Part shown: in pieces, positions 6,748 to 61,788 of the stretch
Layout: each line of letters opens with the position of its first letter
How positions within the stretch are numbered: the stretch's first letter is position 1
Source of the DNA: Alphaproteobacteria bacterium
GTDB lineage: Bacteria > Pseudomonadota > Alphaproteobacteria > MPNO01 > VGEU01
Assembly: GCA_016869145.1 (NCBI GenBank)
Contig: VGEU01000001.1
Coordinates: forward strand, 49,234 to 113,233
Length of the DNA stretch: 64,000 bases
Direction of reading: 5' to 3'
Notes under the pieces: model-generated
What the model saw: only the letters and a program-made list of their open reading frames with translations
Database searches by the model: none
What the model was told of the DNA's origin: nothing
Position numbers and translations under genes: made by a program

Positions 6748-6810
6748 GGAGCCTCCTCCCGGACGACGCCGACGCGCCGCCCGCCCGACGATGGGTTGAA
6801 CGCGACAGAC

Positions 6811-31260: not shown

Positions 31261-31279
31261 CTCGCACTCGGGCTCAGAT

Positions 31280-36359: not shown

Positions 36360-36369
36360 CCTCGGTGCG

Positions 36370-46001: not shown

Positions 46002-47060
46002 TCAGCCGAACTTCTTCTTGGCCGCATCGAGGAAGCTGAGGTCGACCATGGTCTCGTAGGTCTGCGTCTTGACCTTGGTCGCCTCGCTGAACCAGACCTT
46101 GCCGCCATTCTCGAACTGAGCCCGCGTGATCACGCCGTTGTAGTCGTAGATCGGCTTGAGATACGCGATCTCGCGCATCGCCACCTCGGGCTTAAAGTTG
46201 CCCATGAACCGGCCCTCGACGGTCTTGTAGAGCTGCTCGGGCGTGCTGTTCTTGATCAACTGGAGGGCGCGATAGACGGCGTTGACGATGCCTTGGGTCA
46301 GCGCGGGCTTGGCCTTGATCTGCTCCTCGAGCGCGAACAGGCACTGGCCCGCGAAGGCGGAGCCGAAGAACTTGTTCCACAGCGCATCGTCGGTGGCGTT
46401 GAACGCGGCCTCGCCCAGCTTCTCGTCGGCGATGGCGAAGAAGATCAGGGTGTTCGCCATGCAGGCGTCGACCTTGCCGCTCTTGAAGGCCCCGATCATC
46501 GGCGCGCCGTCGCCGGTCGAGACGAAGTTGACGTTGTCGAGGAGACCGGCCTTCAGAAACATGTGGGAGCCATAGAGCCAGCTCTGCGCGCCGACGCGCG
46601 TGACGGCGATCTGCGGCTTGGTGCCGTCGGGCTTCTTCAGATTGCCGAGCGCCTCGACGGTGCGGATACCCTTCTCCCACAACTCGTTCCGAACCATCAG
46701 GGTCATCGTGGCGCGGGTGTCGAGGCCCATCATGATCTTGGCCGACTTGCCGGCGCCGGTGAGATAGAGCGGATGGATCACGTCGCCCTGGGCATACGGC
46801 ATCTGCCCGGCCGCGACCATCTGGCGGGTGTTGGTGCCGGCGGCGCCGGTGACGACGCGGCCGTTGATGCCCTCGTCCTTGAAGTAGCCGGCGGCGGAAG
46901 CGACCATGAACTGGAGGCTGTTCGAGGTCTCGACCGGGATGCCGAGCAGCATCTCCTCCGCCTGCGCCCGGGCCGCACCGGCCCAGGTGAACGAGTAAAG
47001 CTTGGTCGCGGCCACGGCCCCGGTGCCGGCCAACATCGTCCGGCGATTGATCCCACTCAT
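46002..47060 (-). CDS. ABC-transporter-type periplasmic substrate-binding protein (NMT1/SsuA/TauA-like) with a Tat signal
   Basis: Start at [32 protein letters not shown] (twin-arginine motif). No ABC permease or ATPase genes are adjacent. Confidence 0.75.
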
Positions 47061-47279: not shown

Positions 47280-48686
47280 ATGCCGCATACGCTCCGGTCG
47301 TTCCTCGACAACATCCATAACCGGATTCTCAACATCCACGATCCGGTGCGCCCGGAAACGCAGATCGGCATCCTGTGCTCGGAGAGCCGGAGCCCGCTGA
47401 TGTTCCACAATCTCGTCGGCTATCCCGGCTTCAAGCTGACCGACATCTTGATCAAGGACCGGCGCGGCCAGGCCGCCGCTCTTGGCCTCGACAACATCAA
47501 GGAGGTCTGCCCGTTCCTCGCCAAGCAGATGTCGGCCGGCCCCGGACGCTCCACCATCGTCAAAGACGGTCCGGTGAAGGAGGTCAAGCTGATCGGCAAG
47601 AACGCCGATATCCGTAAGCTTCCCATCCCGCAGCACAGCCACGGCGATGCCGGGCGCTATCTCGGCTCCGGCATCACGATCACCAAGGACCCCGAGACCG
47701 GCATCCGGAACGAGTCCATTCTCCGGATGCAGCTCACCGACGATCCGCACAAATGCCCGTTCTGGATGGCGGCACGACACAACTATAGCCACTATCTGAA
47801 ATACGTCGCGCGCGGGGAATCGATGCCGATGGCGTTCGCGATCGGCCTCCACCCGGTCTACGAGATCATTGCCAACTGGTCGGGTCGGCACGAGGACTTC
47901 GACGAGCTCGAATATGCGGCCGGCGTCCTCGGCGAGACGGTCGAGCTCGTGAAATGCGAGACCATCGACCTCGAGGTTCCGGCGCATGCCGAGATCGTCA
48001 TCGAAGGCCTCGTCCATCCGACCGAGCGCATGCCCGAGGGTCCGTTCGGCGAGTTCACCACCCTCGGCACCGGCGCCGAGGGACCGGCCCCGGTGTTCAC
48101 CGTGACCGCGATCACCCACCGCAAAGACCCGATCTTCCGCCACATGCAGGCGACGTGGTTCACCGACCACCAGCCGTTGATCACGCTTCCCATGGAGGCC
48201 GCCTATTACAACCGGCTGCGCGACACCCACGGCAACACCAAGGTCCTCGACGTGTTCGTGCCGCCCTGGGCGTCGCAGTTCATGATGGTGGTCCAGGTCG
48301 AGGCGAAATGGGACGGCCAGGTCACCGATATGCTCATGTCGGCGCTGTCGGGCCCCAACCTCCACGTCAAGGTCGCGATCGCCGTCGACGAGGACGTCGA
48401 TCTCTACAACGCCGAGGACGTCCTGTGGGCGATCGCCGCCCGCTGCAACCCGCAGACCGATGTCTGGGTGCATCCGAACTCGCGGCTCCACCCGCTCGAC
48501 GTCTCGATCCCGCAGATCGGCGACGAGTACACGGTGATGCGCGTCGGCGGCAAGCTCGCGATCGATGCGACCCGTCCGCCGACCTGGCGCAAGAAGGAGC
48601 GTGACAGTCTCGGCCGCGTCGATCCGATGGGCAAGCACGACCCGGCGATACAGAAGATCCTCGAGATGGTGCGCCTGCCGCGCTGA
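47280..48686 (+). CDS. UbiD-family (prFMN-dependent) decarboxylase, type B paralog
   Basis: Start at MPHTLRSF (RBS TTGGAG); 468 aa, with GRYLGSG, EGPFGEFTT and the UbiD fold. It is about 35% identical to the 55853-57295 gene. Confidence 0.85.
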   Translation: MPHTLRSFLDNIHNRILNIHDPVRPETQIGILCSESRSPLMFHNLVGYPGFKLTDILIKDRRGQAAALGLDNIKEVCPFLAKQMSAGPGRSTIVKDGPVKEVKLIGKNADIRKLPIPQHSHGDAGRYLGSGITITKDPETGIRNESILRMQLTDDPHKCPFWMAARHNYSHYLKYVARGESMPMAFAIGLHPVYEIIANWSGRHEDFDELEYAAGVLGETVELVKCETIDLEVPAHAEIVIEGLVHPTERMPEGPFGEFTTLGTGAEGPAPVFTVTAITHRKDPIFRHMQATWFTDHQPLITLPMEAAYYNRLRDTHGNTKVLDVFVPPWASQFMMVVQVEAKWDGQVTDMLMSALSGPNLHVKVAIAVDEDVDLYNAEDVLWAIAARCNPQTDVWVHPNSRLHPLDVSIPQIGDEYTVMRVGGKLAIDATRPPTWRKKERDSLGRVDPMGKHDPAIQKILEMVRLPR

Positions 48687-48739
48687 CGGCCTTCCGCCAG
48701 CACAGGCACCGGCACCGGCACCAGCAGCATCGTGCCCGC

Positions 48740-49957
48740 ATGACCTCGGCCGTCGCCCACGCCGACCATCGGGTCGAGAACAAGACGATCGGGTTCATCT
48801 CGATCGGGCATGCGATCAGCCATTTCTACATGCTGGTGCTGCCGCCGCTGTTCCCGGTCCTCAAGACCGAGTTCGACGTGAGCTGGGCGTGGCTCGGCGG
48901 CATCCTCACGCTCTCGGGCGTCGCGATGGGCGTGGCCCAGGTTCCGCTCGGGTTCCTGGTCGACAAGATCGGCGCGCGGCCGGTGCTGTTCTGGGGCTTC
49001 GGCATCATGGCCGGCGCGACGATGCTGTCGGGCTTCGCCGACACTTTCGTGCTCCTCCTCGTCCTCACCGTGATCGCCGGGCTCGGCAACTCGGTGTTCC
49101 ATCCGGCGGACTACGCGATCCTGTCGGCACGGATCCGTGGGCCCCGTCTCGGCCGCGCGTTCTCGGTTCATCTGTTCGCGTCCTATATCGGCTGGATGAT
49201 CGCGCCGGCGGTCATGATCGCCCTCAACGAGATCGTCGGCTGGCGCAACGCGCTGATCGTGACCGGCGCCGCCGGTCTCGTCTTCCTCGCCGTCATGATC
49301 TGGCAGCGCGACTGCGTCGACGACCGCAAGAACGTCGTCGCGCGCGGCAAGGACGCACCGGCGCCGATGACGCCGTTCGAGATGGTGCGCAACCCGCCCA
49401 TCCTTCTGTTCTTCCTGTTCTTCCTTCTGCTCGCACTCGGCGGCACCGGGCTCCACAGCTTCATCGTCACCTCGCTGGTCGAGCTCTACGGCGCCGATCT
49501 CCGCGTCGCCAACATCGCGCTCGCCGGTTTCTTCGCGGCCGGCGGCATCGGCATCCTCATCGGCGGCTACATCGCCGACAAGACCGACCGCCACGAGGAC
49601 GCGACCGCGATCGCCTATGTGATCGGCGCGGTCCTGATCGCCGCCGTCGCGTTTCCCGTGGTCGGCATCTGGGGTGCGGTCGCCCTCCTCTTCCTCGGCG
49701 GCCTCTTCAACGCCTGCGTCAGCCCCTCGCGCGACATCATGGTGCGGAACATCTCGCCACCGGGCCAGGTCGGGGCCGTGTTCGGGCTCGTCACCACCGG
49801 CTTCTCGGTCGGTGGCGCGATCGCCCCGGCGCTGTTCGGGTGGTTCAACGACATCGGCCATCCGCAATGGGTGTTCTGGTTCTCGGCGTTGACCTCGCTG
49901 CTCTCCATCCTCGCCGTCTATGCCGCCCAGATCGCGCACCGGCGCTCGCTCCGCTGA
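48740..49957 (+). CDS. MFS transporter
   Basis: 405 aa with 12 predicted TM helices and MFS motifs (GFLVDKIGARP). Confidence 0.85.
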   Translation: MTSAVAHADHRVENKTIGFISIGHAISHFYMLVLPPLFPVLKTEFDVSWAWLGGILTLSGVAMGVAQVPLGFLVDKIGARPVLFWGFGIMAGATMLSGFADTFVLLLVLTVIAGLGNSVFHPADYAILSARIRGPRLGRAFSVHLFASYIGWMIAPAVMIALNEIVGWRNALIVTGAAGLVFLAVMIWQRDCVDDRKNVVARGKDAPAPMTPFEMVRNPPILLFFLFFLLLALGGTGLHSFIVTSLVELYGADLRVANIALAGFFAAGGIGILIGGYIADKTDRHEDATAIAYVIGAVLIAAVAFPVVGIWGAVALLFLGGLFNACVSPSRDIMVRNISPPGQVGAVFGLVTTGFSVGGAIAPALFGWFNDIGHPQWVFWFSALTSLLSILAVYAAQIAHRRSLR

Positions 49958-50010
49958 TCGCGCCACCACTTGGCCGCTGACAAGCCCGGCCGAATCCCGC
50001 ACACTTCCGC

Positions 50011-50052
50011 GTCGTCCTGTGCCCGTCGTCCTGTGCCCGTCGTCCTGTGCCC
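50011..50052. repeat. Perfect tandem repeat 3 x 14 bp (GTCGTCCTGTGCCC) immediately upstream of the RBS of the TctC-like gene
   Basis: gtcgtcctgtgccc gtcgtcctgtgccc gtcgtcctgtgccc gtcatcc, read directly. The RBS GAGGAG is at about 50063. Confidence 0.85.
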
Positions 50053-50075
50053 GTCATCCGGTCGAGGAGTCCGTC

Positions 50076-51113
50076 ATGCGCCGCGCCTCTGCGTCGTTCA
50101 TCGCCGTCACCGCCTTGCTGAGCGGCGCCCTCGCGGCCGCCCCGCGTGCAGAGGCCGACGAGATCGCCGACTTCTTCAAGGGCAAGATCATCCGGATCAT
50201 CGTCGGCTTCGGCGAAGGCGGCGGCTACGATCTCTACGCCCGCTTCGCCTCCGAGCACATGGGCCGGTTCATCCCCGGCAACCCGACCATCGTCACCCAG
50301 AACATGCCGGGTGCAGGCAGCAAGCGCGCGGCGAAATTCGTCTACTCGGTCGCGCCCAAGGACGGCACCGTGTGGGGCATGGTGGCGCAATCGGTGCCGC
50401 ACGAGGCCGCGCTCGGCGACGCCGAGTTCGACTACGACGTCAACAAGTTCCAGTGGCTCGGCCGCATCACCTCGAACGTCGACGTCGGTGTCACTTGGCA
50501 CACCACCAATGTCCGGACCATCGCCGACGCCCAGGCGCGCCAGGTCGTCGTCGGCGGCACCGGCGCCGCCTCACCCTCGGTCCAGGTGCCCAAGGCGCTC
50601 AACCACATCCTCGGCACCCAGTTCAAGATCGTCACCGGCTACAAGGGCTCGGCCGATATCTCGCTCGCCATGGAGCGCGGCGAGGTCGACATGGTGGCCT
50701 CCATCGGCTGGCCGTCGATCAAGTCGACGCGGCCGCAATGGGTGCGTGACAAGCAGGTGAACTTCATCTATCAGACCGCGGTCGAGAAGCACCCCGAGCT
50801 TCCCAACATTCCGGCGCTCGGCGAGCTCGGCCGCAATGCCGACGAGACCGCGGTGCTCCACTTCATTGCCTCCTCTGCCGATATCGGCCGCGCGCTGTTC
50901 GCGCCCCCCGACACGCATCCGGGCCGGCTCGCGGCGCTGCGCAAGGCCTTCGACGCGATGGTCGCCGATCCCGTCGTCAAGGCCGACGCCGAGCGGCGGA
51001 ATGTCGACTTCGACACCGCGACCTGGCAGAAGCTGCAACAGCTCACCACCCAGATCGTAACGACGAAGCCCGAGGTGCTGGCCAAGGTGAAGGTCGCGCT
51101 TGACCAGAAATAG
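50076..51113 (+). CDS. Periplasmic solute-binding protein, divergent TctC/Bug-like family (paralog 3 of 3)
   Basis: Start at MRRASASFIAVTALLSGALAAAPRAEA (signal peptide). FFKGKIIRIIVGF, IPGNPTIVTQNMPGAGS and KIVTGYKGSADISLAMERGEVDM are shared with paralogs 1 and 2. Confidence 0.85.
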   Translation: MRRASASFIAVTALLSGALAAAPRAEADEIADFFKGKIIRIIVGFGEGGGYDLYARFASEHMGRFIPGNPTIVTQNMPGAGSKRAAKFVYSVAPKDGTVWGMVAQSVPHEAALGDAEFDYDVNKFQWLGRITSNVDVGVTWHTTNVRTIADAQARQVVVGGTGAASPSVQVPKALNHILGTQFKIVTGYKGSADISLAMERGEVDMVASIGWPSIKSTRPQWVRDKQVNFIYQTAVEKHPELPNIPALGELGRNADETAVLHFIASSADIGRALFAPPDTHPGRLAALRKAFDAMVADPVVKADAERRNVDFDTATWQKLQQLTTQIVTTKPEVLAKVKVALDQK

Positions 51114-51159
51114 GCCTGTCCGACACCGGCCGCGACAACCGCAGAAAGGAGCCCGGACC

Positions 51160-52053
51160 ATGTCCGCGACATTGTCCGACCGACCGAACGACGCCGATCT
51201 GAAGTCCCTCATGCCGCCACGCGCCGCACTGCACGCCCAGATCGATGCGTGGCTCAGGGAGGACATCGGCCGGCTCGACATCACGACCGAGTACATGATC
51301 CCGCGCGATGCGCGGGCCGAGTTCGTGATGAACACCCGCCACGACATCGTCGTCTGCGGCATCGACATCGCGGCGGAGGTGTTCCGCTTTCACGTGCCGG
51401 AGGCCGCGATCCAGATCCTGATGACGGATGGCACACGCGCGACCAAGGGCCAGGCGCTCTTGAAGGTGAGCGGGCCGGCACGCGGGCTTCTCACCGCCGA
51501 GCGGACCGCGCTCAACGTCCTCCAGTTCCTGACCGGGATCGCGACCCTGACGGCGCGCTATGCCGATCTCGTCAAGGGCACGCCGGCGACCCTCATCGAC
51601 ACCCGGAAGACGCTCCCCGGCTATCGCGCGCTCTCCAAATACGCGACCGTCGTCGGCGGCGCGCGGAACCATCGCATCCGCCTCGACGACGGCATCATCA
51701 TCAAGGACAACCACATCGCGGTGTGCGGCTCGATCACCGCCGCCGTCGCCCGCGCCCGCGCGCTGACGCCCTCGCTCACCAAGATCGAAGTCGAGTGCGA
51801 CACGCTCGCGCAGGTCGCCGAGGCCGCCGCCGCCAAGGCCGACGTCATCATGCTCGACAACATGGACGCCGCCATGATGCGCGAGGCGGTGAAGATCGTC
51901 GCCGGCCGCGCCGAGCTCGAGGCCTCGGGCGGCATCACGCTCGAGACCATCCGCGACAAGGCGATGACGGGCGTCGACTACATCTCGGTCGGACGCATGA
52001 CCCAGTCGGCGCCGGCCGCCGACATCGGGCTCGATGTGCATCTGATGGTGTGA
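51160..52053 (+). CDS. nadC: Nicotinate-nucleotide pyrophosphorylase [carboxylating] (quinolinate phosphoribosyltransferase)-family protein
   Basis: Start at MSATLSDRP (RBS AAAGGAG); 297 aa. The NadC signature LREDIGRLDITTEYMI is present, plus the KDNH catalytic region (IIIKDNHIAVCG) and GGITLETI. It is not flanked by nadA or nadB. Confidence 0.85.
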   Translation: MSATLSDRPNDADLKSLMPPRAALHAQIDAWLREDIGRLDITTEYMIPRDARAEFVMNTRHDIVVCGIDIAAEVFRFHVPEAAIQILMTDGTRATKGQALLKVSGPARGLLTAERTALNVLQFLTGIATLTARYADLVKGTPATLIDTRKTLPGYRALSKYATVVGGARNHRIRLDDGIIIKDNHIAVCGSITAAVARARALTPSLTKIEVECDTLAQVAEAAAAKADVIMLDNMDAAMMREAVKIVAGRAELEASGGITLETIRDKAMTGVDYISVGRMTQSAPAADIGLDVHLMV

Positions 52054-52058
52054 GCCCC

Positions 52059-52625
52059 ATGGCGTCATCGCGTCTGCCGCGCCGGCGCGCGCTCTGCCTG
52101 TTCTGCGGCGCCTCGGAGAAGTTCCCGCCGAGCTTCCGTGCCGCCGCCGAGGCGCTCGGCGCTGGCTCTGTCCGGAACGGCTGGCGGCTCGTCTATGGCG
52201 GCAGCCGGTCCGGGCTGATGGGCGCCGCGGCGCGCGCGGCGATGGCGGCGGGCGGCGAGGTGATCGGCGTCCGCCCGCGCGGCCTCATCGCGGCGGAAAT
52301 GCCGGCCGCCGAGATCACCGAGCAGATCCACGTCGACACATTCCATGAGCGCAAGGCCGTGATGGCGGCGCTCGCCGACCACTTCGTCGCGCTGCCGGGC
52401 GGGCTCGGCACGCTCGATGAGGTGAGCGAGATGATGAACCTCGCCGTCACCGGCATCCAGGCCCAGCGAACCTGGTTCCTCGATATCGATTCCTATTGGC
52501 GCCCGCTGATGGCGCTGTTCGCCCACTTCGATTCCTACGGCGCGTCGCGGCCGGGCTTCGAGGCCACCTATGCCGCCGTCGAGAGCGTCGATGCGCTGTT
52601 CGCCGCGCTCGACCCGAAACGCTGA
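52059..52625 (+). CDS. LOG-family nucleotide 5'-monophosphate phosphoribohydrolase (TIGR00730 Rossmann-fold protein)
   Basis: Start at MASSRLPRRRALCLFCGAS, 5 nt after the nadC stop. VYGGSRSGLMGAAA...PGGLGTLDE matches LOG-family motifs (GGGxxGLMG; PGGxGTxEE). Confidence 0.8.
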   Translation: MASSRLPRRRALCLFCGASEKFPPSFRAAAEALGAGSVRNGWRLVYGGSRSGLMGAAARAAMAAGGEVIGVRPRGLIAAEMPAAEITEQIHVDTFHERKAVMAALADHFVALPGGLGTLDEVSEMMNLAVTGIQAQRTWFLDIDSYWRPLMALFAHFDSYGASRPGFEATYAAVESVDALFAALDPKR

Positions 52626-52643
52626 CCGAGGGAACGAGACGCC

Positions 52644-53621
52644 ATGGTCCGACGTCGGTTGTTGCTCGCCGTGCTCGCGCTCGCAGGCGGTCTTGCCGTC
52701 GCCGGCGCGGCGAACGCCCAGGCCTATCCGACCAAGCCGGTCCGCATCCTCAACGGCTTCGCCGCCGGCGGCGCGCAGGACCTCCTCGGGCGGATCATCG
52801 CCGATCATCTGTCGAAGGCGCTCGGCCAGCCCTTCATCGTCGAGGCCAAGCCCGGCGCCGGCGGGATCGTCGCCGGCCAGATCCTGATCGCCTCGCCCGC
52901 GGACGGCCACACGCTCTATGTCGTGAGCCCCGGCATCATCGCGACCGCCCGGGCGATGAACGACAACATGACCTATGACCCGGCGACCGCCTTCGCGCCG
53001 GTCACCGTCCTCGCCGAAGCGCCGATGATCATCCAGATCGCCGCCGACATTGCGATGACGACCGTCAAGGACTTCATCGCCTATGGCAAGGCCAACCCGA
53101 CCAGGCTCAATCACGGTTCGCCCGGCGTCGGCACGGTGCCGCATCTCGCCGCCGAGCTGTTCCGCGCGCGCCTGGGGTTCGAGAGCGTCCATATTCCGTT
53201 CCGCGGCCAGGGGCCCTTCACCCAGGCCATCCTCCAGCGCGAGGTGCAATGGGGGTTCGGCGCGCCGATCTCGGCCCTCGCCGCGCTCCGCGGCAATAAT
53301 GGGCGGCTGATCGCCGTCACCAGCCGGACCCGCTGGTCGGCCGCGCCCGACGTGCCGACGCTCGCCGAGCTCGGCTTCGAGGACAGCGTGTGGTCGGTGT
53401 GGAACGGCCTTGTCGCGCCGGCCGGAACCCCGACCGCGATCATCGACCGCCTCGCCGGCGAGATCGCCCTCGCGATGAAGGACCCGGCCACCATCACGCG
53501 CATCCAGAACTCGGGCTACGAGCCGTGGACGCTGAGCCCGGCCGAGACGGCGCGGTTCTTCGAGGCCGAGCGGGCGCGCTGGTCGGCGGTCGCGAAGGCC
53601 AACAATATCAAGGCGGAATAG
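52644..53621 (+). CDS. Tripartite tricarboxylate transporter substrate-binding protein (canonical TctC/Bug family)
   Basis: 325 aa with a signal peptide; AYPTKPVRILNGFAAGGAQDLLGRIIADHLSKALGQPFIVEAKPGAGG is the typical Bug/TctC signature. Confidence 0.9.
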   Translation: MVRRRLLLAVLALAGGLAVAGAANAQAYPTKPVRILNGFAAGGAQDLLGRIIADHLSKALGQPFIVEAKPGAGGIVAGQILIASPADGHTLYVVSPGIIATARAMNDNMTYDPATAFAPVTVLAEAPMIIQIAADIAMTTVKDFIAYGKANPTRLNHGSPGVGTVPHLAAELFRARLGFESVHIPFRGQGPFTQAILQREVQWGFGAPISALAALRGNNGRLIAVTSRTRWSAAPDVPTLAELGFEDSVWSVWNGLVAPAGTPTAIIDRLAGEIALAMKDPATITRIQNSGYEPWTLSPAETARFFEAERARWSAVAKANNIKAE

Positions 53622-53692
53622 ACTATCATTTGACACCGACCGCCGACTGACGCATGTGAGGCGGGCACGGATCGACACTTTGGGAGAGAGCG

Positions 53693-55204
53693 ATGGCGAA
53701 GTCCCTGCGGGACATAGTCCCCGGCGGCAAGTCTGCGAGCAACCTTCAAGCTGTCCTGCCGTACAAGGACTTGCGGCAATGGCTTGAGGAAGCGAAGAAG
53801 CTCGGCGAGGTCGTCATCGCCAAGGGCCTCGGTGTCGAGGAGGAGATCGGCGCCGCCGCCGAGATGGTGATGCAGCGCGACGATGCGCCTTGCGTCGTGT
53901 TCGACGAGATCCCGGGCTACCCCAAGGGCCATCGCGTGCTCGTCAATTTCTTCGGCGGCAAGCGCAAGAACATGACGCTCGGCTTCCCAACCGAGCTTTC
54001 GAAGATCGACCTCTCGGAGGCCTACTACTCCAGCCAGATCAAGGAATTGCCGTCGATCCCTCACGTTATCGTCGAGAGCGGTCCGGTGACCGAGAACATC
54101 AAGGAGGGCGATGCGATCGACGTCACGGCCTTCCCGGCGCCGATGTGGCATCCGGCCGATGGCGGCCGCTATCTTGGCACCGGTTCATATGACGTCACCA
54201 TCGATCCCGATTCGCGGTGGATGAACCTCGGCACCTACCGCGTCATGGTGATGGATAAGAAGACGGTCGGCTTCTACATCTCGCCGGGCAAGCACGGCCG
54301 GGTCCATCGAGACAAGTGGATGGCGCGCGGCGAGCCGATGCCGGCGGTGATCGTCTGCGGCGGTGACCCGATGACCTTCCTCGCCGCCTGCACCGAGATG
54401 CCGCAGGGTCAGTGCGAGTACGACATCGTCGGCGGCATGCGCGGCGAGGCGCTCAAGTGCATCAAGGGCAAATACACCGGCATTCCCTTCCCGGCCGACG
54501 CCGAGATCGTGATCGAGGGCTTCGTCGACCCCAGGGAGCGCCGCCCCGAAGGGCCGTTCGGCGAGTGGACCGGCTATTACGGCTCCGACATGCGCGACGA
54601 GCCGGTGATGCATGTGAAGGCGGTCTATCACCGCAACAACCCGATCATCCTCGGCTGCCCGCCGCAGCGCCCGCCCGACGAGATGTGCCGCTATCGCGCC
54701 ATCACGCGCTCGGCGATGCTCCGCTCCAATGTCGAGAAGGCGGGTGTGCCCGATGTCGCCGCCGCCTGGGCGCATGAGGTCGGCAACGCGCGGATGCTCC
54801 TCGGCATCGCGATCAGGCAGCGTTATCCCGGCCACGCCAAGCAGGCCGGCCATGTCGCCGCGATGTGTCATGTCGGCGCCTATGCCGGCAAATATGTCGT
54901 GGTGACCGACGAGGACATCGACGTGTCGAACCTCGAGGAGCTCACCTGGGCGATGCTCACCCGCTCCGATCCCGCGACCTCGATCGACATCATCCATGGC
55001 GCCTGGTCGACGCCGCTCGATCCGCGCATTCCGCCCGACGAAAAGAAGAAGGGTAACATGACCAACAGCCGGGCGATCATCGACGCCTGCCGGCCCTTCC
55101 ATTGGCGGAACGAGTTCCCCAAGGTCAACGCCCCCTCGCCCGAGGAGGCGCGCCGGGCGCGCGAGCGCTTCGGCTATCTCCTCGAGGGCAAGGACAAGCC
55201 CTAG
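53693..55204 (+). CDS. UbiD-family (prFMN-dependent) decarboxylase, type A paralog 1
   Basis: 503 aa, with GGRYLGTGSY, EGPFGEWTGYYG and the C-terminal HAKQAGH...TDEDIDV. It is about 70% identical to the 57376-58884 gene, with long stretches identical at the DNA level in inverted orientation. Confidence 0.9.
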   Translation: MAKSLRDIVPGGKSASNLQAVLPYKDLRQWLEEAKKLGEVVIAKGLGVEEEIGAAAEMVMQRDDAPCVVFDEIPGYPKGHRVLVNFFGGKRKNMTLGFPTELSKIDLSEAYYSSQIKELPSIPHVIVESGPVTENIKEGDAIDVTAFPAPMWHPADGGRYLGTGSYDVTIDPDSRWMNLGTYRVMVMDKKTVGFYISPGKHGRVHRDKWMARGEPMPAVIVCGGDPMTFLAACTEMPQGQCEYDIVGGMRGEALKCIKGKYTGIPFPADAEIVIEGFVDPRERRPEGPFGEWTGYYGSDMRDEPVMHVKAVYHRNNPIILGCPPQRPPDEMCRYRAITRSAMLRSNVEKAGVPDVAAAWAHEVGNARMLLGIAIRQRYPGHAKQAGHVAAMCHVGAYAGKYVVVTDEDIDVSNLEELTWAMLTRSDPATSIDIIHGAWSTPLDPRIPPDEKKKGNMTNSRAIIDACRPFHWRNEFPKVNAPSPEEARRARERFGYLLEGKDKP

Positions 55205-55228
55205 GCCATCGACCGGACGGCCCAAGGC

Positions 55229-55254
55229 AAAGGGCGGCCCGCGGGCCGCCCTTT
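55229..55254. terminator. Bidirectional GC hairpin (AAAGGGCGGCCC-gc-GGGCCGCCCTTT) between the convergent UbiD and rhodanese genes
   Basis: Perfect 12-bp inverted repeat with flanking T-rich sequence (tttgtcgtt). Confidence 0.65.
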
Positions 55255-55278
55255 GTCGTTCCGGTTCGCGGCCGCGAC

Positions 55279-55653
55279 CTATTTGTCGACCGCGCCGCCG
55301 CCCTCGGCCCAGTCCTTGAACGCGCCGAGATTGAAGACCCGGCCATAGCCCATCTCCTTGAGGACATGGCCGGCGAGCGCCGAGCGCCCGCCGGAGGCGC
55401 AATAGACGAGGACCGTCTTGGCCCGGTCGAAATTCTTGTCGTGATAGGGCGAATCCGGATCGGCGCGGAACTCGAGCATGCCGCGCGAAACATGGACCGC
55501 GCCGGCCACCTTGCCGGTGTTGGCGACCTCGGCCGCATCGCGGACGTCGACGACGAGCGTCCCGCCTTTGGCGATCATCGCCTGCGCGTCCGCCGGCGTG
55601 ACCCGCGGCACCGCGGCATTGGCCGCCTCCATCATCGACTCCACCGTCTTCAT
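55279..55653 (-). CDS. Single-domain rhodanese-like sulfurtransferase
   Basis: Start at MKTVESMMEAANA (RBS GGAGGGA); 124 aa, with the active-site loop CASGGRS (CxxGxR). Confidence 0.8.
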   Translation of the reverse strand: MKTVESMMEAANAAVPRVTPADAQAMIAKGGTLVVDVRDAAEVANTGKVAGAVHVSRGMLEFRADPDSPYHDKNFDRAKTVLVYCASGGRSALAGHVLKEMGYGRVFNLGAFKDWAEGGGAVDK

Positions 55654-55852
55654 CGTGTCCCTCCGGTCTGGTTGATCATCAACGGGAGAATATGGTGCGC
55701 CGGCGCGGCTGCGAATAGCCCGAGCGGCCGCGAACGTGATCTGGTGCACGGTCTCCCGGTCAGAACACGGCGTCCCGGTTCGCGATGCGACCCGATGAAC
55801 GCCCGGAGACGGCGTCGATGCATGTCGGGTCGCCGCATCGTGCGAGCGCCGT

Positions 55853-57295
55853 TCACCCGAACACGTCGGGGAACTTGGCACGCACCGCTCGGGCGAGCTC
55901 GGGCGAGGTCTGGGCGACCTTTGGGAAGGTCTCGAGCCGCTCATAGGGGATGCAGGCGTCGATGACGGCGCGGCTGTTGTAGAGCTCCTTCCCCGTCACC
56001 ATCGGGTCGAGGCGCGAGGACCAGGTCTTGGTCAGGATCTGGATGTCCTGTTTCGGGTCCGAGCGCGTCCCCATCGCCCAGATGACGTCGTGGATGTCGG
56101 AGGGGTCGATATCTTCGTCGACGACGACGATGTAGCGCCCGACATAGCCGACCGGGTTGACCTGCGAGGCGACCATGCCGACCTGGGTCGAGTGGCCGAA
56201 ATAGCGCTGGCGGATCGCGACGACGACGAAGGTGCGCCCCGAGCCCGCCTGGTGCACCCACACGCCCTTGACGTCGGGAATGCCCGCGCCCTCGAGCGAG
56301 TCCATCAACGCCGCCGAGCGGATGAAGCAACGCTCGAACAGATGCGAGTGCGGCGGCTTCTGGCTCGCGGCGCAGGTGAGGATCGGGTCGTTCCGCCAAT
56401 AGGCCGCTTTGATCCGGATCAGCGGCTCCATCTTGGCGTCGCCCGCGTAATAGCCGGTCCATTCGCCGAACGGACCTTCCAGCACCTGCTCGTCCGGAAC
56501 GCACTCGCCCTCCAGCACGATCTCGGACTGCGCCGGGATCGGCAGACCCGTGATCGGGCCGGGCACGCAATCGATCGGCGCGCCGGCGATGCCACCCGCC
56601 CAATCGAGCTCGGCAACCGTGTCGGCGAGCGTGTAGCGCGCGGCGATGTAGCTCACGGGATCGATGCCGACCACGATCGCCATCGGGCACGGCTTGCCGC
56701 TCTTGAAGTATTTGTCGCGATGGATGCGGCCCTGCTTGCCGTTCGAGATGTAGGACGCGCAGCTATTGCCCGAGATCACCTGCACGCGATAGGTGCCCAT
56801 GTTGATGCGCCCGGTATCCGGATCGCGGGTGATGACGGCGCACGCGGTCCCGATATAGCGCCCGCCGTCGAGCTCGTGGTGGATCGGCACCGGAAACTTG
56901 AGGAGATCGACCGCCGCGCCTTCGGCGATGTTCTCCATCACCGGGCCGCGCTCGACCATGCGTGGCGGGATCGGCTTGTTGGTCTTGATCTGCTTGCGGA
57001 ACTGGTCGAGGAGCGCCATGCGGTCGCGGCTCGCGACGCTCGCATCGAGACCGAAGCCGAGCGCGAGCCGGAAGGGCGAGCCGAGCATGCCGTAGATGCA
57101 GCGGAAGCCCTTGGGATAGCCCGGAATGTCGTCGAAGAGTAGGAGCGGCGAGCGATCGACCTTCTCGCGGTAGAGCACCTCGGTGACCGCACCCATCTCC
57201 TTGTCCCAATGGGCCCGGTTCACCGTCTTGAGCTCGCCGCCCTTCTCGACCGCGGCGAGAAAGGCGCGGAGATCGGTTTGCACCGCGTTGCTCAT
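55853..57295 (-). CDS. UbiD-family (prFMN-dependent) decarboxylase, type B paralog
   Basis: 480 aa, with GGRYIGTACAV, EGPFGEWTGYYAG and the UbiD fold. Confidence 0.9.
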   Translation of the reverse strand: MSNAVQTDLRAFLAAVEKGGELKTVNRAHWDKEMGAVTEVLYREKVDRSPLLLFDDIPGYPKGFRCIYGMLGSPFRLALGFGLDASVASRDRMALLDQFRKQIKTNKPIPPRMVERGPVMENIAEGAAVDLLKFPVPIHHELDGGRYIGTACAVITRDPDTGRINMGTYRVQVISGNSCASYISNGKQGRIHRDKYFKSGKPCPMAIVVGIDPVSYIAARYTLADTVAELDWAGGIAGAPIDCVPGPITGLPIPAQSEIVLEGECVPDEQVLEGPFGEWTGYYAGDAKMEPLIRIKAAYWRNDPILTCAASQKPPHSHLFERCFIRSAALMDSLEGAGIPDVKGVWVHQAGSGRTFVVVAIRQRYFGHSTQVGMVASQVNPVGYVGRYIVVVDEDIDPSDIHDVIWAMGTRSDPKQDIQILTKTWSSRLDPMVTGKELYNSRAVIDACIPYERLETFPKVAQTSPELARAVRAKFPDVFG

Positions 57296-57375
57296 GGGCT
57301 CGTCCTCCCTCGACTACGCGAAGGGGCGGATCGACGACCCGCCCCTCCCGGTCCCATCGCCTGCACCGCGCCGGC

Positions 57376-58884
57376 TCACTTGGTGAGCCAGCCCCATTTC
57401 TCGCGCGCTTCCTTGGCGAGCTCGGGCGACGGCGCGTTGACCTTCGGGAACTCGTTCCGCCAATGGAAGGGGCGACAGGCGTCGATCACGGCGCGGCTGT
57501 TGGTGAAATTGCCCTTCGCCTTGTCCTCCGGCGAGATGCGCGGATCGAGCGGCGTCGACCAGGCGCCATGGATGATGTCGATCGAGGTCGCGGGATCGGA
57601 GCGGGTGAGCATCGCCCAGGTCAGCTCCTCGAGGTTCGACACGTCGATGTCGTCGTCGGTGACGACGATGTATTTCCCGGCATAGGCGCCGACGTGACAC
57701 ATCGCGGCGATGTGCCCAGCCTGCTTGGCGTGACCGGGATAACGCTGCTTGATCGACACCGCGACCAGCATGCGCGCGGTGCCGACCTCGTGCAGCCAGG
57801 CGGCGGTGACATCGGGAACGCCGGACTTGGCGATGTTCTCCTTGAGGAGCGCCGAGCGGGTGACCGCGCGATAGCGCGCGAGCTCGTCGGGCGGGCGCTG
57901 CGGCGGGCAGCCGAGAATGATCGGGTTGTTGCGGTAATAGATCGCCTTGATGTCGAGCACTGGCTCCTCGCGGTGCTTGGAGCCGTAATAGCCCGTCCAC
58001 TCGCCGAACGGCCCCTCTTCGCGCATGTTGCCCGGGCGCACGAAGCCCTCGATCACGATCTCGGCGTTGGCCGGGAACGGCAGCCCGGTATGCTTGCCGA
58101 GAACGACGTCGATCGGCTTGCCGCGGAAGCCGCCGACCACGTCGTACTCGCAGACATTCGGCGGTATCTCGCTGCAGCCCATGAGGAACGTCATCGGATC
58201 GCCGCCGCACACGATCACCGCCGGCATCGCCTCGTTGCGCTGCATGTACTTGTCGCGGTGGATGCGGCCGTGCTTGCCGGGCGAGATGTAGAACCCGACC
58301 GATTTCTTGTCGTGGATCATCACCCGGTAGGTGCCGAGATTGAGCCAGCCGGTGTCGGGGTCCTTGGTGACGTTGTAGCTGCCGGTGCCGATATAGCGGC
58401 CGCCGTCGTCGTCGTGCCAGAGCGGCGTCGGGAACGCGTTCACGTCGACCGCATCGCCCTCCATGATGTTCTCGGTCACCGGGCCCGCTGCGACCACGCG
58501 CGGCGGAATCAGCCGGAGATCCTCCATGTAGTTGTGCCGGAACGCATCCGTGAGCTCGATCTTGTTGAGCTCGGACGGGAAGCCGAGCGTCATGTTCATG
58601 CGCCGGCCGGAGAAGAAGTTGCACAGAACGCGCGAGCCCTTGATCGTGCCGGGCACGTCCTCGAACACGACGCAGGGCGCCTTCTCATCGTGCAGGATCA
58701 CCTCGGCCGCCATGCCGATGTCGCGCTGCCAGGACGCGCCCTTGACGAACTTCACCTCGCCGAGCTTCTCGGCCTCGGTCAGCCAGCCGCGAAGATCGTC
58801 ATAGGGAATGCGGAGCTCGTTGGCCCGATCGCTGCTGCCGGTCGCGGCGAGCTTGCCGATCGCGTTGCCCATGTCGTCGACCAT
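57376..58884 (-). CDS. UbiD-family (prFMN-dependent) decarboxylase, type A paralog 2 (inverted duplicate of the 53693-55204 gene)
   Basis: 502 aa. Its C-terminal half is nearly identical to that of the 53693-55204 gene (PAVIVCGGDPMTFL ... GHAKQAGH ... RPFHWRNEFPKVNAPSPE). Confidence 0.9.
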   Translation of the reverse strand: MVDDMGNAIGKLAATGSSDRANELRIPYDDLRGWLTEAEKLGEVKFVKGASWQRDIGMAAEVILHDEKAPCVVFEDVPGTIKGSRVLCNFFSGRRMNMTLGFPSELNKIELTDAFRHNYMEDLRLIPPRVVAAGPVTENIMEGDAVDVNAFPTPLWHDDDGGRYIGTGSYNVTKDPDTGWLNLGTYRVMIHDKKSVGFYISPGKHGRIHRDKYMQRNEAMPAVIVCGGDPMTFLMGCSEIPPNVCEYDVVGGFRGKPIDVVLGKHTGLPFPANAEIVIEGFVRPGNMREEGPFGEWTGYYGSKHREEPVLDIKAIYYRNNPIILGCPPQRPPDELARYRAVTRSALLKENIAKSGVPDVTAAWLHEVGTARMLVAVSIKQRYPGHAKQAGHIAAMCHVGAYAGKYIVVTDDDIDVSNLEELTWAMLTRSDPATSIDIIHGAWSTPLDPRISPEDKAKGNFTNSRAVIDACRPFHWRNEFPKVNAPSPELAKEAREKWGWLTK

Positions 58885-59080: not shown

Positions 59081-59320
59081 TCAGCGCCGCTTGAGCCAGC
59101 GGAAGAGGCGGATCACCGCGAGCACCGGCAGCACGATCGCCGCGCCGAGGAGAACATAGGAGCCGATCTTGATCCCGATCTCGGCGATGCGGTCCCAGCC
59201 GTCGCGGACCATGGCGACGATCCCCTTCCAGAACTCGACCGCGTCGATCCCGAAGAACGCGAGGACGAGACCGACGACGAAACAGATCAAGACGATCTTG
59301 AGTACCCAGGCCAGGTTCAT
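59081..59320 (-). CDS. Small hypothetical membrane protein (2 TM)
   Basis: From MNLAWVLKIVLICFVVGLVLAFFGIDAV...; a hydrophobic ORF sitting between annotated genes. No family assigned. Confidence 0.4.
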   Translation of the reverse strand: MNLAWVLKIVLICFVVGLVLAFFGIDAVEFWKGIVAMVRDGWDRIAEIGIKIGSYVLLGAAIVLPVLAVIRLFRWLKRR

Positions 59321-59374
59321 TCCGCCTCTCCGCCGCGCCGGCACCCCGCGTGTCTGCGCCATCCGTCGCTTCCC

Positions 59375-61711
59375 TCAAGCCGCGCGCTCTGCCGCGGCGA
59401 TGGCCCGCCACACGGTCTCGGCCGTGACCGGCATGTCGATCGCCGTGATCCCGAGCGGCGCGAGCGCATCGATCACCGCGTGGACGACCGCCGGCAATGC
59501 CCCGACGGTTCCGGCCTCGCCGGCCCCCTTGAGGCCGAGCGGATTGGTGCGGCACGGCACCTCGTTGGTCTCGATCGTGATCGGGCAGAAATCATCGGCG
59601 CGCGGCATCGCGTAGTCCATGAACGATCCCGAGAGCAGCTGACCGCTCGCCGGGTCGTAGGCGACGGTCTCCATCAGGGCTTGGCCGACGCCCTGCGCGA
59701 TGCCGCCGTGCACCTGGCCGTGGAGGAGAAGCGGGTTGACGACGCGCCCGACATCGTCGACCGCCGCGTAGCGGACGATCTCGATGCGGCCCGTCTCGGG
59801 GTCGATCTCGACCTCGACGATGTGGCAGCCATTGGGAAAGCTCGGCGGGCCGGTCACGAACGTGCCGGCCTCGTCGAGGCCCGGCTCCATGTCGCCCGGC
59901 AGGAGATCGGGGCGATAGGCGGCACGGGCAATCTCGGTGATCGCGATCGCGCGATCTGTTCCCGCAACCGTGAACCGGCCGGCGTCGTAGACGATGTCCT
60001 CGGGCGCCGCCTCGAGCCGGTGCGCCGCGATCCGGCCGGCCTTCGCCACCATCTTGGCGACGGCGTTCGCGATCGCGTTTCCGATCAGCGTCATCGAACG
60101 CGAGCCACCGGTGCCGCGCCCGAACGAGACGATATCGGTATCGCCCTGGACGAACCGGATCGCGTTCATCGGCACCCCGAACGCGGCCGCGACCATTTGC
60201 GGAAACACGGTCTCGTGCCCCTGACCGTTCGACATCGAGCCGACGATCAGCGTGATGTGGCCGGACGGGTCGAAGCGGATCTGGGCGCGGTCGTCGGTCT
60301 GGCCGGCGCAGCGCTCGATATAGTTCGCGATGCCGATGCCGCGGAGCCGCCCGCGTTCGCGCGCTTCGGTGCGGCGCGCGGGGAAGCCGTCCCAGTCTGC
60401 GATCGTCTTGGCGCGCGCCATGTTGGCCGCGAACTCGCCCGAGTCGTAGGTGAAGATCAACCCGGTCTTGAACGGCATCGCCTCGGGTGGGATGCAGTTC
60501 CGCCGGCGCAGCTCCGACGGATCGAGGCCGAGCTCGCGCGCCGCCTGGTCGACGACGCGCTCGATCACGTAGATCGCCTCCGGGCGGCCGGCACCGCGAT
60601 AGGGACAGGTCGAGTTGTTGTTGGTGAGGACGCCCGTCACCGCGACCGTGATCGCGGGTGTCGTGTAGACACCGGCGAGCATGCCGAGGCCGGTGACCGG
60701 CACGAAGGCGCCGAGATTGGCCACATAGGCCCCGACCGAGGCGAGCGTCGCGACGCGGAGCGCGAGGAACCGGCCGTCGGCATCGAGCGCGAGCTCGGCG
60801 GTCGAGACGTTGTCGCGCGCGTGGGCATCGCTCATCAGCGATTCCGATCGGTCGGCGATCCATTTGACCGGCCGCCCGCCGATCCGCCGCGAGGCGAGGA
60901 GGAGAAGGGGATACTCGGCATACATGTTGCCGCCCTTCATCCCGAACGAGCCGCCGAAATCGCGGCAGATGATGCGGATGCGGTTCTCCGCGATCTTCAG
61001 GATGTCCTGGGCGAGTTGCTGACGCGTGCGGTGCGGCCCCTGCAGCGGCGCATGCAGAAGATAGCGGTCCTCGGCCGCGTCCCACACGCCGATCGCGCCA
61101 CGCGTCTCCATCGGGTTGGCCGAGACACGGTTGTTGACGATCCGAACGCGCGTCACGTGCGCGGCGCGTGCGAAGGCGGCGTCGACCTTGGCGACATCGC
61201 CGGCGACGTGCTCGAAGGCGATGTTGCGCGGCGCCTCGTCCCAGACCAGCGGCCGGCCCGGATCGGTCGCGGTCGCCGTGTCGGTGACGGCGGGCAGCGG
61301 CGCATAGTCGACCTCGACCCACTCGGCGGCATCGCGCGCCGCCTCGGCCGTCTCGGCGACGATGCAGGCAAGCGCGTCGCCGACATGGCGCACCCGGTCG
61401 CCGGCGAGCAGCGGGCGGGTCGGGAGAATGCTCGTGGTCCCCGGCTTGGGTCGCGGGGCGACCTGGACCGGGATGTGCCCGAGACCCTCGGCCTCGACAT
61501 CGGCCGCGGTCAGCACCAGGAGGACACCGGGCGCCGTCGCGGCGCGTTCGGTGCGGAGCGCACGGACCCGGGCGTGGGCGTGCGGCGAGCGGACGAACAC
61601 GGCATGGGTCATGGCGGGCATGCGGACATCATCGACATAGAGCCCGCGTCCGGTCAGGAGCCTCGGGTCCTCGGTCCGCGGGACCGGCTGCCCGAACCCG
61701 AACTTCTCCAT
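59375..61711 (-). CDS. Xanthine dehydrogenase family molybdopterin-binding large subunit (orphan)
   Basis: Start at MEKFGFGQPVPRTEDPRLLTGRGLYVDD; 778 aa, with GGSFGMKG, GAGRPEA and QVHGGIAQG motifs. Confidence 0.85.
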   Translation of the reverse strand: MEKFGFGQPVPRTEDPRLLTGRGLYVDDVRMPAMTHAVFVRSPHAHARVRALRTERAATAPGVLLVLTAADVEAEGLGHIPVQVAPRPKPGTTSILPTRPLLAGDRVRHVGDALACIVAETAEAARDAAEWVEVDYAPLPAVTDTATATDPGRPLVWDEAPRNIAFEHVAGDVAKVDAAFARAAHVTRVRIVNNRVSANPMETRGAIGVWDAAEDRYLLHAPLQGPHRTRQQLAQDILKIAENRIRIICRDFGGSFGMKGGNMYAEYPLLLLASRRIGGRPVKWIADRSESLMSDAHARDNVSTAELALDADGRFLALRVATLASVGAYVANLGAFVPVTGLGMLAGVYTTPAITVAVTGVLTNNNSTCPYRGAGRPEAIYVIERVVDQAARELGLDPSELRRRNCIPPEAMPFKTGLIFTYDSGEFAANMARAKTIADWDGFPARRTEARERGRLRGIGIANYIERCAGQTDDRAQIRFDPSGHITLIVGSMSNGQGHETVFPQMVAAAFGVPMNAIRFVQGDTDIVSFGRGTGGSRSMTLIGNAIANAVAKMVAKAGRIAAHRLEAAPEDIVYDAGRFTVAGTDRAIAITEIARAAYRPDLLPGDMEPGLDEAGTFVTGPPSFPNGCHIVEVEIDPETGRIEIVRYAAVDDVGRVVNPLLLHGQVHGGIAQGVGQALMETVAYDPASGQLLSGSFMDYAMPRADDFCPITIETNEVPCRTNPLGLKGAGEAGTVGALPAVVHAVIDALAPLGITAIDMPVTAETVWRAIAAAERAA

Positions 61712-61788
61712 GCCCCGCCCTTCGTCCCGCCGGTGGTCTGATGCCACGGCGCATTGTACGGTGGCCGCCGCGTCGGGAGGAAGAACGC

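Follow-up and report, generated by a model that had tools for sequence, protein, structure and literature searches.

Four predicted non-canonical UbiD-family decarboxylases at one alphaproteobacterial locus: a candidate system for the breakdown of aromatic polycarboxylic acids

There is a demand for UbiD-family enzymes as catalysts of reversible (de)carboxylation, yet their known substrate classes amount to only a handful. The phenazine-1-carboxylate decarboxylase PhdA of Mycolicibacterium fortuitum, a homohexamer in which Glu269 is the acid residue, is encoded together with its own UbiX (PhdB) and a maturase (PhdC) (PMC13040415). In the lumazine cluster of Cupriavidus, the xanthine-8-carboxylate decarboxylase XCDC and its UbiX place a UbiD-family enzyme in the molybdenum-hydroxylase catabolism of an N-heterocycle (PMC12391406), thereby setting a precedent for a UbiD in such a pathway. 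As for phthalate degradation, the published description of the Azoarcus pht cluster lists no second UbiD. We analyzed a 64-kb stretch of DNA (the window; contig VGEU01000001.1 of the Alphaproteobacteria bacterium assembly GCA_016869145.1), in which four UbiD-family genes, designated here as U1 to U4, occur between positions 47280 and 58884. We propose, with a probability that we put at about 0.55, that U1-U4 are separate decarboxylases operating in the breakdown of aromatic polycarboxylic acids of the pyridine or ortho-dicarboxylate type, using prenylated flavin mononucleotide (prFMN) produced by a distally encoded UbiX. As compared to the known UbiD/UbiX catabolic clusters, the novelty lies in the presence of four orthogroups, the absence of a local UbiX and the conserved coupling of NadC (quinolinate phosphoribosyltransferase) to a nucleotide-cleaving enzyme.

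The genes of the window, the G+C content of which is ~67% throughout, were called from their third-position G+C and then checked with Pfam and NCBIfam. All four UbiD open reading frames (ORFs) that a preliminary description had located there were found to be full-length. U1 (47280-48686, + strand), an HmfF-like UbiD decarboxylase of 468 amino acids from its ATG, like its homologues of 468 amino acids, is the first gene of a plus-strand operon. U2 (53693-55204, +; 503 amino acids), a PhdA/PpcB-like UbiD decarboxylase of a NadC-associated orthogroup, is the last gene of this operon. On the other strand, U3 (55853-57295, −; 480 amino acids, all three Pfam domains) and U4 (57376-58884, −; 502 amino acids, 80 nt upstream of U3) are also PhdA/PpcB-like, U3 making its own orthogroup and U4 belonging to a U3-paired one. 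The four proteins match PF01977 (E 1e-60 to 3e-67) and likewise PF20696, and they pass the generic UbiD model TIGR00148 (261-279 bits, cutoff 245). They do not reach the canonical UbiD equivalog NF008175 (4-hydroxy-3-polyprenylbenzoate decarboxylase; 140-158 bits, cutoff 788), nor the cutoff of any other specific NCBIfam equivalog.

The presumed catalytic residues were located with HMMER residue-by-residue alignments to A. niger Fdc1, PtHmfF, PhdA and HudA, and with a four-way MAFFT alignment. In U1, the N148, H171 and E213 residues correspond to N168, H191 and E233 of Fdc1 (the ligands of Mn and of the prFMN phosphate), and the R153, E257 and E262 residues to R173, E277 and E282 (the catalytic Arg/Glu/Glu network). 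The same ligand and network columns are conserved in U2-U4, and the second Glu of the UbiD network corresponds to the Glu269 acid of PhdA. The ligand His stands in a GKH motif in U2 and U4; in U3 (GKQ/GRIH), where the MAFFT register is off by four, the His was read from the alignment and is assigned as a probable ligand. The H175 residue of U1, invariant in the MAFFT alignment, was discarded as a metal ligand, as it reflects a register shift and the HMMER alignment to Fdc1 points to H171. Together, these data indicate that U1-U4 are intact, bona fide, non-canonical UbiD-family enzymes, as judged from their sequences; neither a grouping with the canonical UbiD nor a loss of the prFMN-binding residues, the two outcomes that the preliminary description had named as fatal to its proposal, was observed.

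U1-U4 represent four UbiD orthogroups, not the alternation of two subtypes initially proposed, in which U1 and U3 were both regarded as "type B". U2 and U4 are 68.5% identical to each other and 44-45% identical to U3, whereas U1 is only 27-29% identical to the others, including U3. Furthermore, a neighbour-joining tree of 187 sequences of the U2, U3 and U4 types (a distance tree without support values) placed U4, U2 and U3 in three separate orthogroups, U1 bringing the number of lineages to four. The tree and the occurrence of NadC-linked U2 orthologues, which make up a separate orthogroup, also ruled out that U2 is a recent in-genome duplicate of U4. U1-U4 were compared with characterized UbiD enzymes by their bit scores to solved structures and to NCBIfam models. 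The best solved relative of U2, U3 and U4 is PhdA (7PDA; 351, 323 and 351 bits, respectively; U4 being 38.7% identical over 462 residues), followed by HudA (173-203 bits), and that of U1 is PtHmfF (6H6X; 207 bits, 35% identity over 413 residues). By the tests applied, U1-U4 all fall outside the canonical UbiD, PpcA/B, HmfF, PhdA and Pcd (phthaloyl-CoA decarboxylase) subfamilies.

To analyze the conservation of this region, the window proteins were compared with those of 80 genomic loci found via U4 and 80 metagenomic loci found via U3 (L numbers below), and the window was also compared with ten Pfam-labelled genomic contexts; this sampling makes the frequencies given below valid for this lineage only. 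The closest homologues occur in uncultured Alphaproteobacteria (Rhodospirillales-like metagenome-assembled genomes (MAGs), Defluviicoccus, Stellaceae, Xanthobacteraceae), the top genome match being 82% identical and the top database protein 91%. The database homologues number in the thousands, and their names are all generic or derived from automated transfer. Operons were called from strand and short gaps; a promoter and terminator scan returned counts no higher than those of shuffled sequences, and thus gave little information on operons. The gene order of the third part of the region, namely molybdenum-hydroxylase large subunit (MoL)-DUF6460-U4-U3, is not an assembly artefact, because an independent 6.3-kb JGI contig (L001) reproduces it at 99-100% identity. 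The density of UbiD genes, described earlier as very unusual, is indeed so in comparison with genomes in general; within this lineage it is not, as 36 of the 49 related genomic loci that span 15 kb or more harbor two or more UbiD genes, eight harbor at least three and three harbor four. In the window, this density reflects the co-location of three modules.

The proposal that these modules belong to one catabolic system is based on the following lines of evidence. First, U4 is followed by U3 in 16 of the 17 close relatives of the window. Second, U2 orthologues (69-78.5% identical, and in every case nearer to U2 than to U4) occur in a NadC operon in four arrangements: NadC-LOG-TctC-U2 in the window, NadC-U2 in L169, MoL-MoS-MoM-NadC-U2 in L171 and NadC-PhnN-AMPpase-U2-SBP in L172 (AMPpase, AMP-phosphorylase-type enzyme). 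Third, U1 is divergent from an acyl-CoA dehydrogenase (ACAD) and CoA-transferase (CoAT) pair in the window and in L014-17, L083-86, L088 and L167; in L167, U1 and this unit stand isolated among housekeeping genes. The ACAD/CoAT/MarR unit is co-located with U1 and/or NadC in L014-17, L083-86, L088, L106, L167, L170 and the P0250 contig; NadC has links to U2 and, also in loci lacking U1, to the ACAD/CoAT unit. Fourth, the MAG OY730228 (3.44 Mb) possesses orthologues of all four UbiDs at three distant loci, i.e., U4-U3 at 0.23 Mb, NadC-U2 at 1.22 Mb and U1 divergent from ACAD-CoAT at 2.88 Mb. Fifth, marine relatives have the clusters LysR / U4 U3 / PhnN-AMPpase NadC / AH2 / U1 / ACAD CoAT MarR (AH2, Amidohydro_2-fold protein), the order and orientation of which differ from those of the window. 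The gene set persists through these rearrangements, and we therefore propose that its members serve one physiological process.

A first clue to the nature of the substrates is the pairing of NadC with enzymes that cleave nucleoside monophosphates (NMPs). In the window, NadC (51160-52053, +, starting at ATG 51160), the decarboxylating quinolinate phosphoribosyltransferase, scores 306 bits against TIGR00078 (cutoff 198) and is 100% identical to a database protein of 297 amino acids. It is followed after 11 nt by LOG (52065-52625, +), a nucleoside 5'-monophosphate phosphoribohydrolase (145 bits to TIGR00730, cutoff 96) with the PGGLGTLDE version of the PGGxGTxxE motif. Such an NMP-cleaving enzyme stands directly after NadC, within a few bases, and it is LOG in both the window (51160-52625) and L170. 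Elsewhere, LOG is replaced by PhnN fused to the AMP-phosphorylase-type enzyme (11 loci, 49-100% identity) or by the two as separate genes (two further loci), as exemplified by L083 13101-15825, L087 11182-13901 and L172 7001-9960. The AMP-phosphorylase-type enzyme scores 292 bits to the T. kodakarensis AMP phosphorylase (4GA5), and the PhnN domain, a ribose-1,5-bisphosphokinase forming phosphoribosyl pyrophosphate (PRPP), scores 165 bits (cutoff 156). That a phosphorylase takes the place of LOG would be expected of genes whose task is to release the base. Independently of this pairing, we noticed a gene of the CinA/PncC type (NMN deamidase family) at 6135-6617 of L083-L085, a few kb from the marine U4-U3/NadC cluster, which adds a further pyridine-nucleotide enzyme to the surroundings of this system.

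A second clue comes from a sister clade of U4/U2 (48-71% identical), the members of which lie beside a genuine Pcd, UbiX and CoA-transferases in 24 loci (L029 5286-11512; L033-L040, L042, L044-45, L048, L050-51, L059-60, L068, L070, L076, L140, L144, L146-147 and L153), the Pcd of L029 scoring 1065 bits to 8PMK. It is worth noting that phthalate is the carbocyclic analogue of quinolinate. Homologues of U4 at 65-71% identity, more distant than those of its close relatives, are among the genes found next to UbiX and Pcd. In addition, the closest solved relatives (PhdA and HmfF) use N- or O-heteroaromatic acids, and the four molybdenum-hydroxylase large subunits, the Bug/TctC binders and the TctA of the window would suit substrates of this kind.

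From these data we propose that the window contains three separately inherited modules of one catabolic system for aromatic and N-heteroaromatic polycarboxylic acids. Module 1 would comprise U1, the CoA-transferase, the acyl-CoA dehydrogenase and MarR; module 2, the operon U1-MFS-TctC-NadC-LOG-TctC-U2, U2 being the UbiD that invariably accompanies NadC; and module 3, MoL-DUF6460-U4-U3-rhodanese, i.e., a molybdenum hydroxylase with two further decarboxylases. The polycarboxylic acids would be taken up by systems of the tripartite tricarboxylate transporter (TTT) and MFS types. U1-U4 would most likely be homo-oligomeric, prFMN-dependent enzymes, each taking off a different carboxyl group. A pyridine-2,3-dicarboxylate, either quinolinate itself or a substituted derivative, would be phosphoribosylated by NadC with loss of a carboxyl group, and LOG would free the pyridine monocarboxylate from the resulting mononucleotide, a role played in relatives by the AMP-phosphorylase-type enzyme with PhnN regenerating PRPP. 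U2 would act directly before or after NadC, either converting a tricarboxylate to the 2,3-dicarboxylate or decarboxylating a hydroxylated product of the nicotinate type. More generally, we infer that the substrates of U2/U4-type enzymes are probably aromatic ortho-dicarboxylates, tricarboxylates or hydroxylated forms of these. U4 and U3 would act alongside the molybdenum hydroxylase, and the product of U1 would be a monocarboxylate subsequently activated with CoA. The evidence agrees best with an alternative already offered in the preliminary description, namely that the genes encode several specificities for heteroaromatic acids.

As a more tentative extension, these genes may specify an undescribed route for pyridine polycarboxylates, in which UbiDs of the U2, U4 and U3 types remove surplus carboxyls or act as decarboxylases on hydroxylated intermediates, while a catalytic PRPP cycle takes the recalcitrant C2 carboxyl off the pyridine-2,3-dicarboxylate thus formed. 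In such a cycle, NadC would convert pyridine-2,3-dicarboxylate and PRPP to the mononucleotide and CO2; the AMP-phosphorylase-type enzyme would convert the mononucleotide and inorganic phosphate to the free base and ribose-1,5-bisphosphate (LOG being an alternative means of base release); and PhnN would use ATP to turn ribose-1,5-bisphosphate back into PRPP. The same UbiD clade would play an analogous role beside Pcd, for the benzene polycarboxylates. A limited literature search, which does not prove absence, found nothing relevant on UbiD enzymes and either quinolinate or pyridine dicarboxylates, nor on a NadC-based catabolism of quinolinate.

Several observations weigh against the common catabolic system proposed above. 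NadC could be a housekeeping gene of NAD biosynthesis, and in L169 it stands among genes of the aroQ/accB type. Similarly, LOG or the AMP phosphorylase could act on AMP rather than on nicotinate mononucleotide, thereby providing ribose phosphate or, for a biosynthetic NadC, PRPP. In the neighbour-joining tree, the linkage to phthalate clusters belongs to the sister clade, not to U4 or U2. The electron-poor pyridine rings would not be obvious prFMN substrates unless they are hydroxylated first, and the identity of U1-U4 to any characterized UbiD does not exceed 39%. The proposal accounts only in outline for the CoA-transferase/ACAD unit. Lastly, L082, which possesses the closest relative of U4 (91%), has the U4-U3 pair amid an efflux pump, an aldolase and DinB, showing therefore that the modules can operate apart.

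This last observation, the dispersion of the modules in MAG OY730228 and the richness of the window in other catabolic genes (hydantoinases, several molybdenum hydroxylases, beta-lactamase-fold proteins and short-chain dehydrogenases/reductases) would also suit a catabolic island, where four unrelated specificities had piled up by chance with no common pathway. We regard such a chance assemblage as unlikely, given that U4, U3, NadC with its NMP-cleaving enzyme, AH2, U1, ACAD, CoAT and MarR are regrouped in another order in the marine relatives, at 58-78% identity; that the related MAG OY730228, dispersed as its modules are, retains orthologues of all four UbiDs; and that NadC stays connected with U2 as well as with the ACAD/CoAT unit, even in loci that lack U1.

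The kinship of U1 to HmfF, its best solved relative, raises the question of whether U1 is a true furan-2,5-dicarboxylate decarboxylase in a region degrading furanic compounds. In line with this, U1 homologues bear the JGI label "2,5-furandicarboxylate decarboxylase 1" (an automated transfer of KEGG Orthology terms), and His301 of U1 aligns with His296 of HmfF. Moreover, a GMC oxidoreductase, of what we take to be the family of the hydroxymethylfurfural oxidase HmfH, adjoins the U1 orthologue in L168 (8202-11407) and lies near it in L167 (14006-15652), a neighbourhood that still leaves room for a furan-type substrate of U1. The furoate pathway uses CoA activation and molybdenum hydroxylases, both of which are encoded here. 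However, U1 and HmfF are only 35% identical; neither HmfG/UbiX, nor a three-subunit furoyl-CoA dehydrogenase, nor HmfD/E is found next to U1; and the positions of Arg304 and Arg331 of HmfF, which are presumably ligands of the distal carboxylate, are occupied by Met309 and Gln337 in U1. A furan-specific U1 is therefore very doubtful.

The preliminary description had favored heteromeric A/B complexes resembling the alpha/beta core of phenylphosphate carboxylase (PpcA/PpcB), a model that could apply to U4 and U3 only, U1 and U2 being partnerless. The two genes are adjacent on the same strand, with a gap of 62-130 nt, in 16 of the 17 close relatives and in L030, L043, L072, L090 and L106; PpcB is the best-scoring specific NCBIfam model for U2-U4; and other UbiD pairs recur, such as a U2-type gene with another UbiD (L073/L074) and a U4-like gene with Pcd. 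However, in L087, L088, L091, L094-096, L098 and L100, no U4 lies within 5-8 kb of the orthologue of U3 (62-76% identical). The layout of L087 is that of L083 (thiamine-pyrophosphate enzyme, LysR / U3 ... PhnN-AMPpase, NadC, AH2, U1) minus U4, L088 has the same module order, and both nest inside the clade of U4-paired U3 in the neighbour-joining tree, which therefore indicates a secondary loss of U4. Conversely, many loci have U4-type genes without U3, accompanied by UbiX. Furthermore, U1-U4 do not reach the phenylphosphate carboxylase models TIGR02723 and TIGR02724 (beta, 143-287 bits, with 282-287 for U2-U4, cutoff 469; alpha, 157-184 bits, cutoff 565), and the neighbours include no PpcC/PpcD-like (gamma/delta) genes, the only small one encoding the DUF6460 membrane protein. 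As U3 and U4 each retain the full catalytic set, and as their nearest solved relative, PhdA, is a homohexamer, we consider an obligate U4/U3 heteromer to be hardly probable, their pairing being explained equally well by consecutive or parallel decarboxylations.

Concerning the cofactor, the absence of UbiX from the window, also pointed out earlier, was found both by tblastn with E. coli UbiX and by domain scans. The probe was validated by the genuine UbiX that it matched in related loci. No UbiX/flavoprotein domain was found among the ORFs scanned in the 64-kb window, which also lacks any detected UbiX (PhdB) or HpaC-like flavin reductase (PhdC); the sole tblastn match (26572-26862, E 0.009) is a chance match inside an Amidohydro_1/3 protein. 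None of the 17 close relatives has UbiX within 10 kb, so that a UbiD locus without its own UbiX is the usual state in this sub-lineage. Among more distant homologues, UbiX lies no more than 300 bp from a UbiD gene in 15 loci (verified in L029, 264 bits to TIGR00421), and this proximity therefore ties the UbiD family to prFMN supply. Ubiquinone-making Alphaproteobacteria normally carry a housekeeping ubiX, and we infer that U1-U4 receive their prFMN from a UbiX whose gene lies in another part of the genome.

The neighbours of the UbiD genes listed in the preliminary description, i.e., an MFS transporter, two TctC/Bug binding proteins, NadC, LOG and a rhodanese, are all present. In the plus-strand operon, the MFS transporter (48740-49957, +; PF07690, E 1e-51) has an orthologue at the same position in L170. 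The first TctC/Bug periplasmic binding protein (50076-51113, +; PF03401), the start of which is the Met of its signal peptide (signal sequence MRRASASFIAVTALLSGALAAAPRAEA), has a 65% identical orthologue in L170. The second one (52644-53621, +; PF03401, E 3e-61) is nearest, with similar scores, to solved Bug proteins that bind adipate, glutamate, terephthalate or nicotinate, a comparison that does not discriminate between ligands and was not used to infer one. The window also holds a fused TctA, several Bug/TctC binders and an aldehyde dehydrogenase of the succinate-semialdehyde type. Between the convergent operons, a hairpin with a 13-bp stem (55198-55228) is a possible bidirectional terminator, albeit a weak candidate as the count of such sites does not exceed the shuffle expectation.

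In the minus-strand operon, the single-domain rhodanese (55279-55653, −; 124 amino acids from its MKTVES start; PF00581, E 2e-17) shows no conservation across the related loci. The small DUF6460 membrane protein (59081-59362, −; PF20061), which has two apparent transmembrane helices, lies between MoL and U4, as in L001. MoL (59375-61747, −; PF01315, PF02738, PF20256), which heads the MoL-DUF6460-U4-U3-rhodanese operon, reaches no equivalog cutoff and has no adjacent small or FAD subunit. It is one of four molybdenum-hydroxylase large subunits in the window (1-2238, 13516-15867, 32764-35520 and 59375-61747), three of which lack a neighbouring Fe-S or FAD subunit, the other being fused to its own 2Fe-2S domains and adjoining an FAD subunit (35517-36404). 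The large subunit at the left edge (1-2238) is 68% identical to the one heading the MoLSM-NadC-U2 operon of L171.

AH2 (61741-62925, +; PF04909), which is divergent from MoL, is nearest to solved diiron oxygenases of the amidohydrolase fold (AibH1H2, 6M1W/8FUL; PtmU3; 8SM6-9; E 1e-22), and less close to ACMSD or LigW (E 1e-5 to 1e-8) or to gamma-resorcylate decarboxylases. As judged from these similarities, the activity of AH2 may be that of an oxygenase and not of a decarboxylase. A 36% identical homologue of AH2 recurs in the marine clusters, and a second copy is present in the window at 8452-9690. A pathway of the 3-hydroxyanthranilate/ACMSD type, assembled from AH2, the aldehyde dehydrogenase, RidA, an MhpD-like protein and NadC, was considered and rejected, given the closer kinship of AH2 to AibH and PtmU3 and the fact that no 3-hydroxyanthranilate dioxygenase was seen.

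Upstream of U1, and divergent from it, lies a periplasmic binding protein of the NMT1 type (46002-47060, −; PF13379, PF09084) with a Tat signal (RRTMLAG...AQA), an exported protein as its solved relative (3QSL) and an 83% orthologue in L170; the Tat signal and the exported relative identify it as a binding protein and ruled it out as a decarboxylase of the 4,5-dihydroxyphthalate/6-hydroxyquinolinate type. Further on, Pfam assigned MarR (43007-43465, −), the family III CoA-transferase (43524-44750, −), which is nearest to succinate-glutarate CoA-transferase (556 bits, below the cutoff of 750), and the acyl-CoA dehydrogenase (44747 to ~45940, −), which is generic or glutaryl-CoA-dehydrogenase-like.

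Other parts of the window also merit a mention. A tandem of 714-amino-acid Hydantoinase_B/oxoprolinase paralogues (15955-18099 and 18142-20286) has no Hydantoinase_A partner nearby. Upstream of the fused molybdenum hydroxylase, the gene for a PF06684 ("amino acid synthesis") protein precedes two ORFs of 289 and 536 amino acids with no or marginal Pfam matches (29765-32890). The segment 36622-40999 encodes the two subunits of a 2-oxoacid:acceptor oxidoreductase (alpha, 627 bits to TIGR03710) and, after them, an NAD(P)H flavoprotein resembling the small subunit of glutamate synthase; these proteins could make up a dedicated electron route for a pathway-derived 2-oxoacid. In the regions 5668-8160 and 3318-5546, two ORFs of 359 and 449 amino acids, which have a coding-type codon bias and no Pfam match, adjoin a 742-amino-acid membrane protein of the TctA family, long enough for a TctB-TctA fusion.

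These findings concern four uncharacterized orthogroups that are abundant in Alphaproteobacteria of soil, freshwater and marine habitats, and the genomic partner of each narrows the search for its substrate to aromatic polycarboxylates resembling quinolinate or phthalate. If the linkage of NadC, the NMP-cleaving enzyme and PhnN has the meaning proposed here, it would be a case of a biosynthetic enzyme, NadC, taken over for catabolism as a decarboxylase whose co-substrate PRPP is regenerated. Likewise, the proposal, if true, would explain the undescribed extra UbiD gene occurring beside anaerobic phthalate genes. The earlier, attractive notion that UbiD proteins of this locus form heteromers is not supported here.

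The comparison with the known systems can be summarized as follows. Like PhdA (7PDA), U2-U4 combine the UbiD fold with the catalytic Glu, and the acid used by PhdA is N-heteroaromatic. The identity is only ~39%, and the PhdA context is phenazine degradation whereas that of U2-U4 is NadC, U3 and the molybdenum hydroxylase. In the HmfF/HmfG system (6H6V/6H6X), HmfF turns a heteroaromatic dicarboxylate into a monocarboxylate that is then activated with CoA, and U1 similarly adjoins a CoA-transferase; unlike HmfF, to which it is 35% identical, U1 has neither an adjacent HmfG nor the hmfABCDE genes. PpcA and PpcB of Thauera aromatica resemble U3 and U4 in being two adjacent UbiD-like paralogues, but here there are no gamma/delta subunits and no phenylphosphate synthase, and either of U3 and U4 can be found on its own. 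The XCDC cluster, the likeness of which to the window lies in its description as a cluster, has a single UbiD with its own UbiX. Finally, the phthaloyl-CoA system (PhtDa/PhtDb with PhtSa/Sb; 8PMK, 8OZ5) shares with the window a family III CoA-transferase and, as predicted here, an aromatic ortho-dicarboxylate. U1-U4 score only 34-72 bits to 8OZ5/8PMK, and the phthaloyl-CoA system works on a CoA ester, whereas in the system proposed here it is NadC that would handle the ortho-dicarboxylate.

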